A stretch of 64,000 bases of DNA, from positions 1,391,545 through 1,455,544 of the forward strand of contig OZ242348.1 of NCBI GenBank assembly GCA_965208625.1, read 5' to 3'. The position numbers were made by a program, and so were the translations under genes. This stretch comes from Dehalococcoidia bacterium (GTDB lineage Bacteria; Chloroflexota; Dehalococcoidia; Lucifugimonadales; Australimonadaceae). Every line of letters starts with the position of its first letter. Positions within the stretch are counted from its first letter, which is position 1. The notes beneath the pieces were generated by a model that had not been told where the DNA came from, ran no database searches, and saw only the letters and a program-made list of their open reading frames with translations. This document shows, in pieces, positions 3,050 through 17,846 of this stretch.

Positions 3050-3212
3050 CGCCACTTACCGTCGTTCCTGCGCAGGCAGGAAGCTCGCCTGGTGTAGGGG
3101 CGTCCCATGTGGGCGCCCTTCCCCATCGTTCCCTCTCAGCCTTGTCTTCCCCCTCTCCCCCGGGAGAGGGTGCCGCGCTTCAGCCGCAGCGAGTGAGGGT
3201 CGAGACGCGCCC
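3050..3212. repeat. cluster of G+C-rich hairpin modules (intergenic mosaic repeat family)
   Basis: Contains GTTCCTGCGCAGGCAGGAAG, GTAGGGGCGTCCCATGTGGGCGCCC and CCCTCTCCCCCGGGAGAGGG+GCGCTTCAGC. Each has relatives in the other clusters listed. Confidence 0.8.
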
Positions 3213-13294: not shown

Positions 13295-13418
13295 GCAATT
13301 CATCTCCTGCTCAAAGGATAGCCGACCCAACCTCACCTCCCACACGCACACCCACCCCCGCTCGTGGTAAAACAGAAGCCGCCCCCAAGCGACACGACCA
13401 CCAAAGGAGAACAACCAC

Positions 13419-14369
13419 ATGATCCTGATCATCGGCGGAATGGGTTTCATCGGACTGAACACCGCGCTGCGCCTGCTGGACACCGGCGAGAGCGTCGTCA
13501 TCACGCAGCACAGCGCACACCGCGTGCCGGACGCGCTGACCCCGTACTTGAACGACCGCGCGTTCGTCGACCGCATGGACGTCACGAAACTGTACGAGGT
13601 GATGGACGTCGCGAGCCGCCACAAGGTGGACAGCATCATCTCGTTCGCCGCCCCGCCCGCGCGCGGCATCAGTCCGCAGGAGGACTACCGCATCTACACC
13701 GCCGGGCTGCAGAACACCCTGGAGGCGGCGCGCATCCTCGGCATGCGCCGCGTCTCGCTCGCCAGCTCCACGTCCGTCTACGGCAGCATCCCGCAGGGCC
13801 CGTTCCGCGAGGACATGCCCTTGCCCATCCACTCCGGCACGCAGGTGGAAGCGTTCAAGAAAGGCATGGAGATCCACGCGTTCCACTACGCCGCGCGCGC
13901 AGGGGTCGATGTCGTCTCGCTCCGCATCGGCAGCATCTACGGCCCCTACTACTACAGCATGTTCAACCCCATGAGCCGCATGTGCCACGCCGCCCTCAAG
14001 GGCGAGGACCCCGACTTCTCCGACAGGCCCGGCGGCACGATCAAAGAAGACGACGAGGGCGACTGGACGTACGTCGGCGACCTCGCGCGGGGCATCCAGC
14101 TCGTACACACCGCCGGCTCCCTGTCCCACGACACCTACAACATCGGCTCCGGCGCGGCCACGTCGACGAAGCGCGTCCTGGAGGCCGTGCAGAAGTCCCT
14201 GTCGGACGCTGTCTGCTCCGCCCTCAAACCCGGACGCACCCCCTCGAACGCCCACAACCCCGTCATGGACCTCTCCCGCATCGGCGAAGACGTCGGCTAC
14301 GCCCCCGAACACGACATAGACTCCGGCATCGCCGCCTACGTCGAGCACCTCCGCCACAACGCCCAGTAG
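13419..14369 (+). CDS. NAD-dependent epimerase/dehydratase (extended SDR)
   Basis: 316 aa. N-terminal Rossmann motif MILIIGGMGFIGLNTALRLL. Confidence 0.85.
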   Translation: MILIIGGMGFIGLNTALRLLDTGESVVITQHSAHRVPDALTPYLNDRAFVDRMDVTKLYEVMDVASRHKVDSIISFAAPPARGISPQEDYRIYTAGLQNTLEAARILGMRRVSLASSTSVYGSIPQGPFREDMPLPIHSGTQVEAFKKGMEIHAFHYAARAGVDVVSLRIGSIYGPYYYSMFNPMSRMCHAALKGEDPDFSDRPGGTIKEDDEGDWTYVGDLARGIQLVHTAGSLSHDTYNIGSGAATSTKRVLEAVQKSLSDAVCSALKPGRTPSNAHNPVMDLSRIGEDVGYAPEHDIDSGIAAYVEHLRHNAQ

Positions 14370-14705
14370 CCCCTCCCCGCTCATGGTGAGCCTGTCGAAC
14401 CCATCCTGCGAAGGCAGGAACCTCGCCCCCCGTCTGGTGTAGGGGCATCCCTTGTGGGTGCCCTTGCCCTCGCCTGCCGTAGGGGCGGTTCGCGAACCGC
14501 CCTCCCCCCGTCGTTCCCGCGCTTTAGCGCGCCGAAGGCAGGAACCTCGCCCCCTGTCCGGTGTAGGGGCATCCCCTTGTGGGTGCCCTTCCCCCCGCCC
14601 TGCCGTAGGGGTGGTTCGCGAACCGCCCTGCCCCCACCCGCGCTCACGATGCCGCCCTCCGCTCATGGTGCCCCCTTCTCCGCTCATGGTGAGCCTGTCG
14701 AACCA
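14370..14705. repeat. composite repeat: A-(B-C-D)-(B'-C-D)-A-A arrangement of hairpin modules
   Basis: A = CCGCTCATGGTGAGCCTGTCGAACC. B = CCTGCGAAGGCAGGAACC. C = GTAGGGGCATCCCTTGTGGGTGCCC. D = GTAGGGGCGGTTCGCGAACCGCCC. The B-C-D unit occurs twice in tandem. Confidence 0.9.
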
Positions 14706-14712
14706 CCCGCAT

Positions 14713-14728
14713 TGTCACATTTGTGACA
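14713..14728. promoter_or_regulatory. perfect 16-bp palindrome TGTCACA-TT-TGTGACA (operator-like)
   Basis: Read directly from the sequence. It lies in the lower-G+C stretch upstream of the HTH gene and overlaps TTGTCA/TTGTGA -35-like hexamers. Confidence 0.45.
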
Positions 14729-14812
14729 TCCGCCCATTGCGCCAACGATGCCACCCTCCCTACCCTGTAAGTGCGTCCCCCGCAGACGCCAGCAACACAC
14801 CGATGGAGGGAG

Positions 14813-14947
14813 TGAGCAGAAATGAGCGGAAAAAGGCAGAAACAGATACGAAAAGAGCAGCGAATGAGCAGTAATGAGCAGTCGGACTGCTCACCCGAAA
14901 CGCCGGATTAAGGAGTGACGGACCACCCTGTGAGCAGAAATGAGCAG
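14813..14947 (+). repeat. iteron-like TGAGCAG repeats in three pairs phased 10 bp apart
   Basis: TGAGCAG or variants at 14813, 14823 (TGAGCGG), 14854 (AGAGCAG), 14865, 14875, 14931 and 14941. One inverted copy, CTGCTCA, at 14887. Confidence 0.7.
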
Positions 14948-15328
14948 AAATTCCCTGCGGAGCTTTCCGATAGGCAGGTTTCCGCGCTTCCCTATCTTGC
15001 CGCAGCCGACACCTATACGGAGGGCGCGAAGAGGGCGGAGATCAGCATATCCACGCTGACGCGCTGGCGGCAGGACTCCGTCTTCCGTGATGAACTCCGG
15101 CGGCGGCGCGAGGACGAGGCCAGCCTGGCGCGCACGGAACTCAACGGGCTCGCCCTCAAGAGCATGGAAGCGCTCGCCGTCCTCCTCCAGGACCCCAACC
15201 CCCGCGTCAGGGCAGAGGCCGTCCGCATCGCTCTCAGTGTCGGCATCAAGGTGGAAGAGACCGCGAGGAATGCCCGCCGTCTCAACCAGATTCAGAAGGC
15301 CCTCACCCTGCTCAAGAACGTCAAGTAA
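14915..15328 (+). CDS. hypothetical helix-turn-helix protein (small-terminase/homeodomain-like N-terminus, HEAT-like C-terminus)
   Basis: 137 aa. EGAKRAEISISTLTRWRQD looks like an HTH and DPNPRVRAEAVRIAL is HEAT-like. The start is ambiguous (GTG 14915 overlaps the AAGGAG; GTG 14930 is the alternative). Confidence 0.55.
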   Translation: MTDHPVSRNEQKFPAELSDRQVSALPYLAAADTYTEGAKRAEISISTLTRWRQDSVFRDELRRRREDEASLARTELNGLALKSMEALAVLLQDPNPRVRAEAVRIALSVGIKVEETARNARRLNQIQKALTLLKNVK

Positions 15329-15339
15329 GGAGGCCCCGG

Positions 15340-15726
15340 ATGCCCAACGGACTGGATGCCCTGGAACGCTACCTCGTCTGCCAGCTCGCGCAGGTAACCC
15401 TCTACCCCATCGTCGAGGACTACGTCGACCGCTGGCGCGACGCCATGGAGAACGGCAACCCCTTGCCCGATGTGCTGGATATCGTCGAAGCCGCCGCCGA
15501 GGAGGACGTTCCCATCCTCACCATCGCCTCCGTGGACCCGTACCTGCGGGGGTGCGCGAAGGATGGCCGCATCCCCGACCCCGCCCGCGTCGTCACCGCC
15601 ATCGTTCACGGCTTCGCGGAAGTGCGCTTCGCCATGGACAGGAACTGCCGCTGCCCCGCGCGTCAGCAACTCGGGGAACCCCGCCTCTTCCCCTCCGCAC
15701 GCCTCGCCTTCTTCGACGATGCATGA
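15340..15726 (+). CDS. hypothetical protein
   Basis: 128 aa. The ATG is 11 nt after the preceding stop, with AAGGAGG upstream. No motif recognised. Confidence 0.5.
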   Translation: MPNGLDALERYLVCQLAQVTLYPIVEDYVDRWRDAMENGNPLPDVLDIVEAAAEEDVPILTIASVDPYLRGCAKDGRIPDPARVVTAIVHGFAEVRFAMDRNCRCPARQQLGEPRLFPSARLAFFDDA

Positions 15727-15965
15727 CTCCGTCATTCCCGCGAAAGCGGGAACCTCGTCCCCTGTCCGGTGTAGGGGCATCCCTTGTGGGTGCCCTTGCC
15801 CCCGCCGGCGTAGGGGCGGTTCGCGAACCGCCCTGTCCCCACCCCCCGCTCATGGTCGGGGGTGCCCGCTCATGGTGCCCCCTCCGTCCCTTGTGGGCGC
15901 CCGTTCTCCCACCTCTCCCCTCGGGGGAGGTCGACGCGCTTTAGCGCGCGGTGAGGGGTGGGCGC
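15727..15965. repeat. composite repeat (B''-C-D-A-A plus CCCCTC/GGGGAGG and GCGCTTTAGCGCGC modules)
   Basis: 15749-15882 aligns by eye with 14541-14675, with roughly nine of ten positions identical over the first ~100 nt. Confidence 0.9.
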
Positions 15966-15968
15966 CCC

Positions 15969-17846
15969 CTACCGGTCCGTGCGGTACACGTACCGGTCGT
16001 CCCACAGGCCGTAGAGCGTGGGCGTGACGTTGCCGAACACGTTGCGCACCGCGGTCAGCCGCTCCGACAGCGACGTGTAGACGACGGGCGCCTGCTCCGC
16101 CGCGATCTCCTGTGCCCGGTGATACATCCGCACGCGCTCCTCGTGGTCCAGCTCCTGGCTCGCCGCCGTGAACAGCTCGTCGATCTCCGCTTCCCACGCC
16201 GTCGCCGGCTCCGGCTGGTTCGGGTACCACAGGTGGAAGTCCGCGTCGCTGTGCCAGAACGTGATGGCGCCGTACGGGTCCGGCCCGCCGGTGAAGCCGA
16301 TCACGACCGCCTCCCAGTCGTACGTCGCGGTCAACTGACCGACGAGCAGGCCGAAGTCGATGACCTGGAGGTCCACGTCGAGGCCGATGCTCCGCATCCC
16401 GTCCGCGACGATGCCCGTGGCCCGCTCGCGCACGGTGTTGCCCTCGTTCGTCACGAGCGTGAACGCGATGGGGTTGCCGTCTGCGTCCTCGCGCACGCCG
16501 TCGCCGTCCGCGTCCGTCCAGCCGAGGCCGTCGAGCAGCGTGTTCGCCGCGTCGAGATCGTACTCGTACCGCCGGACGTCCGGGTTGTGGAAGTCGCCCG
16601 TGGCGGGGCTGATGGACGACCACTGCGGGTAGCCGAGTCCGCCAAGCGTCTCCTCGACGACCCGCTCCTTGTCCACACTGTGCGCGACCGCCTGCCGGAA
16701 CTCGAGGGTGTCGAACCACGCCCGCGCCTCGGGCCGTACGTACAGATCCCCGTCCGGGTTCGTGCCGGGGTGCACGTTGAACGTCAGGAACGTCGTGCCG
16801 AAGCCGGGGCCGCGCCGGTAGATGGTGAAGTTGCCCTCCTCCTGCAGCGGCTCCAGCACGGGGTGCTCCTCGCCGAGCACGCCGTGCGCGTCCGTCTCGC
16901 CCGCTTGGAACAGCTCCAACTCCTCCTCCAGCGTATCGACGACGAGGTAGACGATCTCGTCGATGTACGGGAGGCTCTTGCCCGCGCTGTCCCGCATCCA
17001 GTAGTCCGGATTGCGCCCGAGCGTGACCCGCTCGCCCGGCGTATAGCTCGTGATGGTGAGCGGCCCGGTGCCGATGACCTCCGACGGGTCCGTGTCGACG
17101 TCCCAGACCTCCTCGAACGTGCCCGCGTCCACGTACGGTTCGAGGAGGTGCCTCGGGTAGATGGCGGTGCCCATCGAGCGGAGGAACGGCGCGTAGGAGA
17201 CGGGCAGCACGAACCGCACCGTGTAGTCGTCCAGCGCGGTCACGGTCATCCGCCCGTCCGTCAGCTCGCCGGTCTCCTCGTCCGTGTAGACGAAGATGAA
17301 CGGCTCACGGCTGGAAGTCGGGATGTCGTCGTTGTAGATGATGCGGTTGAACGTGAAGTCCACGTCCCGCGCGGTGAACGGCTCGCCGTCGTGCCAGGAG
17401 ACGTCGCGCCGCAGGCGGAACGTCCACTCCTTGCCGTCGTCCGAGTGCTCCCACGACTCCGCGAGCAACGGTTCGATTGCGTCGTTCAGCCACGAGGTCT
17501 CGGTCAGCCCCTCGAACACGTAGCTCAGGTAGCCGGACGAACTCGCGTCGTTCGTGAGCGGCAGGTTGAATGTCAGCGGCTCGCCGATCGTCGAGTACGT
17601 GATCGTCCCGCCGTGCGTGCCGACGGCGTACTCGAAGCTCTCGGCGTTGCCGCGCAGCCGCGCAACGATCTCCTCCTGCGTCTCCGGGCCGGGCTCGGGA
17701 GTGGCCGCAGGCGTCGGTGTTGGTTCGGGAGTCGGCGTCGGCTCGGGCGTGGCAGTCGGGTCGTCGCTGTCGCAAGCGCCCAGCACGAGCGCGCTGAGCA
17801 GCGCCGCCGCAAGGATGAGGAGTATCGCCTTCCGTGTCCGTATCAT
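15969..17846 (-). CDS. ABC transporter substrate-binding lipoprotein, family 5 (peptide/nickel type)
   Basis: ATG 17846 is preferred (GGAGG upstream). Signal and lipobox are LLSALVLGAC, followed by a TPEPTP linker. The length and sequence are typical of DppA/OppA-like proteins. No permease or ATPase genes nearby. Confidence 0.85.
   Translation of the reverse strand: MIRTRKAILLILAAALLSALVLGACDSDDPTATPEPTPTPEPTPTPAATPEPGPETQEEIVARLRGNAESFEYAVGTHGGTITYSTIGEPLTFNLPLTNDASSSGYLSYVFEGLTETSWLNDAIEPLLAESWEHSDDGKEWTFRLRRDVSWHDGEPFTARDVDFTFNRIIYNDDIPTSSREPFIFVYTDEETGELTDGRMTVTALDDYTVRFVLPVSYAPFLRSMGTAIYPRHLLEPYVDAGTFEEVWDVDTDPSEVIGTGPLTITSYTPGERVTLGRNPDYWMRDSAGKSLPYIDEIVYLVVDTLEEELELFQAGETDAHGVLGEEHPVLEPLQEEGNFTIYRRGPGFGTTFLTFNVHPGTNPDGDLYVRPEARAWFDTLEFRQAVAHSVDKERVVEETLGGLGYPQWSSISPATGDFHNPDVRRYEYDLDAANTLLDGLGWTDADGDGVREDADGNPIAFTLVTNEGNTVRERATGIVADGMRSIGLDVDLQVIDFGLLVGQLTATYDWEAVVIGFTGGPDPYGAITFWHSDADFHLWYPNQPEPATAWEAEIDELFTAASQELDHEERVRMYHRAQEIAAEQAPVVYTSLSERLTAVRNVFGNVTPTLYGLWDDRYVYRTDR

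Follow-up and report, generated by a model that had tools for sequence, protein, structure and literature searches.

A putative cognate array of 10-bp repeats across the start codon of a small-terminase-like helix-turn-helix gene family in Chloroflexota

In a 64,000-nucleotide stretch of a Dehalococcoidia chromosome (the window), the gene for a small helix-turn-helix (HTH) protein begins among short, evenly spaced repeats based on TGAGCAG, and the question is what these repeats do. The original prediction described a palindrome and pairs of TGAGCAG upstream of the gene and in its first codons, and read them as iterons or as autoregulatory operator sites for the adjacent HTH protein. We find that the start codon and the first six codons of the gene are part of a 10-nt tandem repeat, that this arrangement is family-wide, and that the repeat core diversifies in concert. 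We favor the reading that the TGAGCAG units form a putative cognate, helically phased binding array that probably autoregulates its gene, and we put the probability of this reading somewhat below one half (roughly 0.45).

The window contains TGAGCAG on the forward strand starting at 14813, 14865, 14875, 14931, and 14941, with TGAGCGG at 14823, AGAGCAG at 14854, and a single inverted copy (Table 1). The heptamer occurs 25 times in the 64-kb window versus 7.9 +/- 3.3 times in shuffled sequence (none of 100 shuffles reaches 25), and 135 bp hold six exact copies. Pairs of the form TGAGCAG-N3-TGAGCAG, with at most one mismatch, occur at three sites in the whole window (14813/14823, 14865/14875, and 14931/14941), all of them in the cassette formed by the HTH gene and the gene that follows it. 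The palindrome, the three pairs with 10-bp spacing, the AGAGCAG variant, and the inverted CTGCTCA lie exactly where the original prediction had them, and the stretch is A/T-richer as it stated, with a GC content of 0.51-0.53 versus about 0.67 and a purine-rich top strand. The pairs are present but not isolated. Tandem Repeats Finder (TRF) places the first two in a longer degenerate period-10 array (6.7 copies, consensus TGAGCAGAAA, 67% matches) and reports a second array at 14931-14951 (2.1 copies, 100% matches). A 21-nt duplication (14812-14832 versus 14930-14950) has 95% identity. The sequence encoding GVSRNERK, previously taken for an upstream pseudo-copy of the 5' end, is instead the first two units of the array, which carry the Shine-Dalgarno (SD) sequence and the ATG of a longer form of the protein. 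A further CTGCTCA at 15308-15314 falls in invariant C-terminal codons (..LTLLKNVK); it is most likely a coincidence of coding, since the same codons are kept in clades with a different repeat unit.

The open reading frame (ORF) had been listed from GTG 14915, with 137 aa. It has 53 close homologues, all from Chloroflexota/SAR202-type assemblies and mostly 168 aa long. This long form of the family corresponds to a start at ATG 14822 and is interrupted in the window, where the frame from that ATG reads MSGKRQKQIRKEQRMSSNEQSDCSPETPD, a stop codon, and then GVTDHPVSRNEQK. Remote homologues are mostly 132-136 aa and start exactly at the equivalent of GTG 14930, which settles GTG 14930 as the ancestral start and the 36-codon extension as a clade-specific addition that is truncated in this genome. 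Of 26 related SAR202-clade loci, 25 keep this extension open at a length of exactly 36 codons, the window being the sole interrupted one. All SAR202-clade loci have GGAGG or AAGGAG 8-10 nt upstream of the corresponding ATG. Compared with L001, which is 95% identical, the window has two substitutions (TTTACGAG to TTAAGGAG) that give rise to both the TAA codon and an AAGGAG SD sequence at 14910-14915; this double change may be a switch to the short form only, or the onset of gene decay. The first pair of repeats straddles the long-form SD sequence and ATG, the second holds the in-frame ATG 14864, and the third holds GTG 14930. Most of the repeats described as upstream of the gene therefore lie inside the extension in the family. 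The last pair does overlap the first codons of the HTH gene, as predicted.

The arrangement is not particular to this genome. A profile search of 1.8 billion representatives gave 2,116 relatives (cluster representatives), and the named source organisms are all Chloroflexota. We compared the DNA of 28 loci from reference genomes and of nine remote relatives. Every locus examined has a tandem repeat of two or three 10-nt units whose penultimate unit contains the start codon. Nucleotides 1-10 and 11-20 are identical at 7 or more of 10 positions in 23 of 32 loci, versus 0.5% of control ORF starts or window positions. The repeat can also be read from protein sequences alone: among 47 distinct N-terminal hexapeptides of the form (M/V)xxNxx, residue 2 predicts residue 5 via the genetic code in 38 (mean 15.6 and maximum 27 in 5,000 shuffles). 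Examples are S (codon AGC) with E, T (ACC) with D, V with G, L (TTG) with V, Q with A, and D with G. The common frame of the unit across the family is ATG-nn-(A/C)CA-R-A. The start-codon repeat persists in the family down to about 25% identity, and arrays with a lineage-specific core are found at the equivalent place in about 40 loci. We found no description of this arrangement for the family in the literature searched, and the sequences indicate a large undescribed family of putative chromosomal small-terminase-like DNA-binding proteins in Chloroflexota.

Unit cores vary by lineage (GCAG, GACC, GCGG, GCC, GAACA, and others), and the copies within one locus are alike. We named four clades, all SAR202, by their unit core (Table 1). 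At the same syntenic site, with an identity of 88-95% (mostly 90-93%) in the flanks and 76-86% in the cassette, the unit is of the AG, ACC, or CGG type depending on the genome. Genomes with paralogues carry 2-3 of them, and the unit types differ in 9 of 10 such genomes. Searching the region from -200 to +25 of 33 loci for the locus-specific heptamer in either orientation gave 163 matches versus 32.8 expected. Adjacent copies in the same orientation are spaced 9-11 nt apart in 61 of 94 cases, 51 of these at exactly 10, and the remaining spacings are mostly 20-22, 31, or 41-43 nt. Some upstream arrays are the reverse complement of the start units (five copies of TGTCCCA in L030, six of GTCACAT in L032, seven of TGGCTCA in L029, and three to four of GGCTCA in L020-27), and all copies are direct in the CGG and ACC clades. 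The occurrence of both orientations is explained by sites in double-stranded DNA. In the recognition helix TLxRW, the exposed position x varies with the core: T occurs with GCAG, K with GACC or AGCC, R with GCGG, Y with GAACA, GTACA, or AGACA, N with CACA, V with CTCA, and H with TCCG. The suggestion that these are sites of the adjacent HTH gene, phased by one helical turn, gains from the neighbors at exactly 10 nt and from the covariation of unit and recognition helix.

The unit is 10 nt long, so successive copies fall in different reading frames; VSRNEQ, for example, comes from GTGAGCAGAA/ATGAGCAG. In alignments within the four clades, the variable columns at codon positions 1, 2, and 3 number 51, 55, and 74 in the extension and repeat (chi-square p = 0.08) and 123, 92, and 307 in the core gene (p = 2e-34), with overall conservation similar in the repeat region and the core. 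The extension and repeat are constrained at all three codon positions, and the region is probably also translated in most genomes. This pattern supports a role for the repeats at the nucleic-acid level rather than as a peptide. A peptide-repeat explanation was rejected, given copies in different frames and almost no third-position bias.

It could also be that the repeat has no dedicated function, and that a slippage-prone duplication is repeatedly homogenized while the rest of the region codes for a basic, K/R/Q-rich N-terminal tail. The fixed length of the open extension fits this, as do the differences in unit number and sequence between proteins of at least 90% identity (P0145 versus P0365) and between loci, which have two or three units. 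However, slippage homogenizes adjacent units, not copies 40-110 nt apart or inverted ones. Two-copy 10-nt repeats would also decay fast without selection, and this repeat persists at the lowest identities in the family; the near lack of third-position bias is a further point against it. We consider this explanation quite improbable. The N-termini of P0145 and P0365, which belong to one 90% cluster, fit 10-nt units that differ in number and sequence (KWCKIVQESAK corresponds to ATGGTGCAAA/ATCGTGCAAG/AATCGGCAAA), which hints at the gain or loss of a unit between close strains.

A role at the nucleic-acid level might concern RNA instead of DNA. The array is within the transcribed leader and covers the start codon in every case, and its units in the mRNA could be bound by a protein (possibly the gene's own product) or by complementary upstream "anti-start" copies, setting the rate or the site of initiation (M1, M15, or M37). 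Each of the three in-frame start codons is within a unit. Upstream units are reverse-complementary to the start units in L030, L032, L029, and L020-27; the leader of L030 folds into a long hairpin (z = -2.36), and in the window CTGCTCA (14887) can pair with the 14865 copy in the minimum-free-energy fold. Folding is no better than that of shuffled sequences in the window (z = -0.89) or in L032 (z = -0.42), however, and 4 of 9 loci of the window's clade carry uncompensated mutations in the inverted copy. An RNA duplex is impossible in the clades CGG and ACC, where there are no inverted copies. A strict period of 10 nt is characteristic of the DNA helix, and HTH proteins of this fold bind DNA. 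There was no Rfam match besides a tRNA, and neither a stable conserved fold nor compensation that would mark a structured cis-regulatory RNA was found. A translational operator of this kind appears unlikely.

The protein is predicted to have a small-terminase fold of the phBC6A51 type. The window protein stays under the Pfam thresholds (HTH_Tnp_1, 19.3 bits; PF13022, HTH_Tnp_1_2, 14.0 bits, E 0.055, gathering threshold 27.9). Among its aligned relatives, 61 of 91 match PF13022 (the phBC6A51-type HTH) at E <= 0.01, the best at 1.3e-8, and some carry a precomputed PF13022 match. The top PHROG match of the window protein is a terminase small subunit (E 1.3e-4). In the AF2 model (pLDDT 87.7), the N-terminal 45 residues are poorly predicted, and a three-helix HTH and two long helices follow (helices 50-61, 65-71, 76-83, 86-121, and 127-167), so that the model has the N-terminal HTH and helical core of a small terminase. 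The best fold match in the PDB is 2ao9 (phBC6A51; probability 0.99, E 0.04), which has been treated as a small terminase (PMC11331095), followed by the NV1 and Sf6 small terminases, all with weak E-values. Against the viral models of BFVD the best E-value is 9e-5, and many of the matches are named terminase small subunit.

A working small terminase would suggest yet another function, in which a dispersed phage-derived machine resembling a gene transfer agent or satellite reads the 5' end of its own gene as a pac-like signal, as in SPP1, P22, and 80-alpha. The recognition site of pac phages has sets of direct repeats and is found within terS or where that gene begins (PMC4737164), a placement that the present locus shares; the small-terminase fold and the weak PHROG terminase matches also fit. 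The surroundings speak against such a machine. Large terminase, portal, and capsid genes were not found within 3-4 kb at about 40 loci (up to about 50 kb in the window), and 2.9 million viral contigs (IMG/VR) yielded no relatives. In the window, genes for an epimerase and an ABC substrate-binding protein flank the cassette in place of large-terminase, head, or packaging genes; neighbors at other loci include uvrB, a sugar kinase gene, proS, rho, nrdR, and similar genes. The paralogues in a genome have different units, and each lies between housekeeping genes in an order that is syntenic across genomes. We judge a pac-like signal very unlikely. A phage origin of the locus was rejected, as there are neither viral-contig relatives nor phage genes in the flanks. 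A link to transposons or insertion sequences, suggested by the Pfam names HTH_Tnp_1 and HTH_Tnp_1_2, was also rejected; transposases adjoin L040 and L042 only. There was no significant PADLOC match to indicate a defense system.

The same context bears on the iterons of the original prediction. Direct repeats in tandem, with helical phasing and in a stretch that is locally A/T-richer, do recall the replication iterons of a plasmid or an integrated replicon. Yet there is no Rep-type initiator among the window proteins, the adjacent gene encodes a terminase-fold HTH protein of 132-168 aa, the site shows no skew inflection, and the GC content falls only to 0.51. The locus is chromosomal and syntenic between the epimerase and ABC-transporter substrate-binding protein genes in many genomes. 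With neither a Rep gene nor an origin, iterons are hardly credible, and that part of the prediction is effectively refuted. Its other part, cognate operator-like sites, remains the best reading of the sequence.

The palindrome is unique in the window even when 3 mismatches are allowed. The conserved cassette has its left edge here: homology to 20 or more related loci starts at 14703-14719, mostly exactly at 14713. Its right arm, TGTGACA, is near-invariant, and its left arm appears as TGTCGCA, TGTCATA, or TTCACA, or is absent, without compensating changes, for which reason a symmetric dimer operator is doubtful. The palindrome that had been called operator-like is thus exact in sequence but unevenly conserved, and its right arm belongs to a promoter-like block of about 45 nt. 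This block has a -35-like TTGCGC (14737-14742), an 18-nt spacer, and a -10-like TACCCT (14761-14766), and it is near-invariant in loci whose proteins share only 60% identity. A strict sigma-70 scan of 14350-16000 found no promoter; remote relatives have textbook TTGACA-N17-TAnnnT promoters at the equivalent place. Based on the conservation of the block and the analogy with remote loci, we take it to be a candidate promoter. TGTGACA fits the family unit frame TGNNACA, and a family member may bind it.

In L035 (8510-8930) the block (TGTGACATCCGCCCATTGTGCG) precedes an unrelated small gene, whose product has a coiled coil and a C-terminal membrane helix. This makes the block a probable promoter or regulator site of the host and not one private to the HTH family. 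Directly after TACCCT there is a short GC-rich inverted repeat (14775-14795 in the window, with equivalents in L002-L018) whose sequence differs per locus (GCGTC...GACGC in the window, CCCTGCAGGG in L009). A REP-like insertion just after the TACCCT equivalent is seen in L005, L012-14, and L017. In L030 (about 290-350), a TTGACA-N17-TACACT promoter is followed by a GC-rich hairpin and a T run (AAGCACAGCCAC...GTGGCTGTGCTTTTCTCGTTT) that resemble a terminator, and attenuation is a possibility at this locus.

In the mechanism that we favor, the approximately 10 TGAGCAG units would be this gene copy's own sites for the protein encoded there. They would be spaced by 10 bp, one per helical turn, from the transcribed leader (here also the extension) across GTG 14930. 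The protein is predicted to consist of an HTH and a helical hairpin that forms rings in phage relatives, and an oligomer may bind head-to-tail along the stretch of about 135 bp or be wrapped by it. The bound oligomer would throttle its own expression (negative autoregulation), and the lineage-specific core would keep the 2-3 paralogues per genome from cross-talk. We infer binding by the gene's own protein, at DNA rather than RNA, from the phasing, the two orientations, the concerted change, the covariation with the recognition helix, and the confinement of the repeats to the gene's own 5' region, where they are also kept in relatives.

Several observations weigh against this mechanism. The sites lie at about +40 to +175 from the presumed promoter and not over it, which is unusual for a repressor, and coverage of the start codon is typical of translational (RNA) operators. 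The covariation of helix and unit is based on a few lineage-level changes, and common descent is a confounder. Close relatives differ in unit number and sequence, so slippage could homogenize copies without selection, and the openness of the 36 codons in all but one locus implies that part of the extension's conservation is protein-coding. In addition, the isolated DNA-binding domain of the SF6/SPP1 small terminase shows little preference for the box repeats (PMC4737164), and a terminase-like fold is therefore no guarantee of sequence-specific reading.

A bolder reading is that the family, very large and domesticated, carries a natural set of orthogonal protein-DNA "barcodes". The own 10-bp unit of each member, repeated along the leader as far as the first codons, would be read by one or two exposed residues of a recognition helix that is otherwise invariant. 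We offer this tentatively and hold it to be somewhat unlikely. If it is true, the N-terminal M-x-x-N-x-x would be a by-product of the binding site, and paralogues would be mutually insulated. In addition, slippage that adds or removes start-codon-bearing 10-nt units could possibly re-set the ATG that is used. Should the protein read its units at all, the family would provide a simple recognition code of one helix position against a 3-4-bp core, with thousands of natural variants. It would also be a case in which a DNA-binding site dictates the first six codons of a coding sequence. A role would emerge for a "hypothetical protein" family that is abundant in SAR202 and other Chloroflexota, and the small-terminase fold would have been recruited for chromosomal gene control away from phage.

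The HTH gene is followed by a partner gene that is predicted to be co-transcribed with it. The partner follows the HTH gene at the syntenic locus and in the remote L028, L029, L030, and L032 (26-52% identity), and so appears to be an ancient companion. Its model is all-alpha (pLDDT 74.8), with R10, W32, P43, P58, Y68, and P79 invariant and a CxCPA motif kept in closer relatives. The partner protein has no match in Pfam, PHROG, PADLOC, or PDB folds. The partner gene is missing beside other paralogues, which still carry repeats.

Composite GC-rich palindromic repeats flank the cassette on both sides (14404-14640 and 15727-15850, also at 3094-3118). Their units, of about 73-125 bp, include GTAGGGGCATCCCTTGTGGGTGCCC and GGGCGGTTCGCGAACCGCCC, and within the window the elements are nearly confined to this site. 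Elsewhere they are amplified to many tandem copies (L010 3260-3760 and 4790-5410; L011 1510-2025), and they look like repetitive extragenic palindrome (REP) or miniature inverted-repeat transposable element (MITE) type elements of SAR202 genomes. Relative to window positions 13404-17000, the two-gene cassette (14713-15722) is reversed in L002, L005, and L018 between the same epimerase and substrate-binding-protein genes. The junctions of the reversed cassettes are tight, with the stop of gene 2 in L002 lying 8 nt from the epimerase stop, and the reversal is either an inversion or a re-insertion.

Table 1. Features of the HTH cassette in the window (positions without a locus name), and start units, clade units, and partner genes at related loci
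Feature	Position	Strand	Basis or remark
Palindrome TGTCACA-TT-TGTGACA, 7-bp arms	14713-14728	+	left edge of conserved cassette
Promoter-like block TGTGACATCCGCCCATTGCGCCAACGAT.CC.CCCT.CCTACCCTGT	14722-14768	+	conservation across loci
Shine-Dalgarno sequence GGAGGGAG for long-form ATG 14822	14805-14812	+	conserved in relatives
Degenerate array, about 7 units of 10 bp	14813-14881	+	TRF; includes pairs 14813/14823 and 14865/14875; in-frame ATGs 14822 and 14864
Inverted unit CTGCTCA (letters of + strand)	14887-14893	-	single copy
Nonsense codon TAA in extension, window-specific	14909-14911	+	locus comparison including L001
Perfect tandem pair GTGAGCAGAA/ATGAGCAGAA/A	14930-14951	+	GTG 14930 in penultimate unit
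Core ORF, small-terminase-like HTH protein (predicted), 132 aa	14930-15328	+	ancestral start GTG 14930
Partner gene, 128 aa, all-alpha (model), CxCPA motif	15340-15726	+	probably co-transcribed with HTH gene
Partner homologue (112-128 aa, window included)	L028 4381-4760
Partner homologue	L029 931-1287
Partner homologue	L030 1048-1386
Partner homologue	L032 3486-3824
Clade AG, unit TGAGCAG			window's clade
Clade ACC, unit TGGACC			L005, L009-11, L018
Clade CGG, unit TGAGCGG			L013-17
Clade GCC, unit TGAGCC/GGCTCA			L020-27
Start units ATGACTCAGA/ATGATCCGG	L029
Start units AAAGTACAAA/ATGGTACAAA/ATGGTACAGC	L030
Start units ATGACACAAA/ATGACACAAA/ATGACCCGG	L031		ATGACACAAA twice, then ATGACCC
Start units ATGTTACAAA/ACGTTGCGG	L032
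Start units ATGTCAGGAT/ATGTCCGAAA/ATGTCAGGTC	L033
Start units ATGAGACAAA/ATGAGACAAA/ATGACACAAA	L040
Start units GTGGAACAGA/ATGGAACAAA/ACGGAACACA	L041
Start units ATGGAACAT/ATGGAACAGA/ATGGAGCGGC	L042

Several known systems share parts of this arrangement. The ring oligomer of TRAP on regular repeats that reach the ribosome-binding site is a model for the RNA-level alternative, but TRAP has a different fold, its target is single-stranded RNA and its period about 5 nt, and it leaves the inverted copies seen here unexplained. Xis proteins (lambda X1-X1.5-X2, L5 gp36) are small winged-HTH proteins that form filaments head-to-tail on direct repeats phased by one turn and bend the DNA. Unlike the family described here, they act at attachment (att) sites beside an integrase gene, which is absent from this locus, and the fold of the C-terminal half differs.

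Arrays of short repeats, either one per turn or contiguous and either direct or inverted, are also known from the 11-bp direct repeats of ParR-parC and the heptads of the omega repressor. In both, cooperative binding by a small protein represses its own operon, and repeat and protein diversify together into incompatibility or specificity groups. ParR and omega are ribbon-helix-helix proteins of plasmid partition with sites over the promoter, whereas the present family has a terminase-like HTH and putative sites over the start codon. In cosB of phage lambda, the HTH of the small terminase gpNu1 has several short R sites beside the start of its own gene. These are three 16-bp sites of mixed orientation with an IHF site between them. 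Unlike the repeats here, cosB is not known to form a tandem 10-bp array or to overlap the start codon.

The pac region of the Bacillus phages SPP1 and SF6 has sets of direct repeats (box a, b, and c) that span the promoter and the start of the gene for the small terminase G1P (PMC4737164). It resembles our locus in that an HTH of small-terminase fold is combined with direct repeats at its own gene, and the idea of many HTHs in one oligomer contacting the DNA would apply to both. The array would belong to a known kind, in which a terminase-like HTH gene has putative cognate repeats, phased by the helical turn, at its 5' end. It differs from SPP1 and SF6 in lacking a large terminase, portal, capsid, and viral relatives and in having several chromosomal paralogues per genome, and here the start codon is part of the strict 10-bp unit, whose core changes concertedly.

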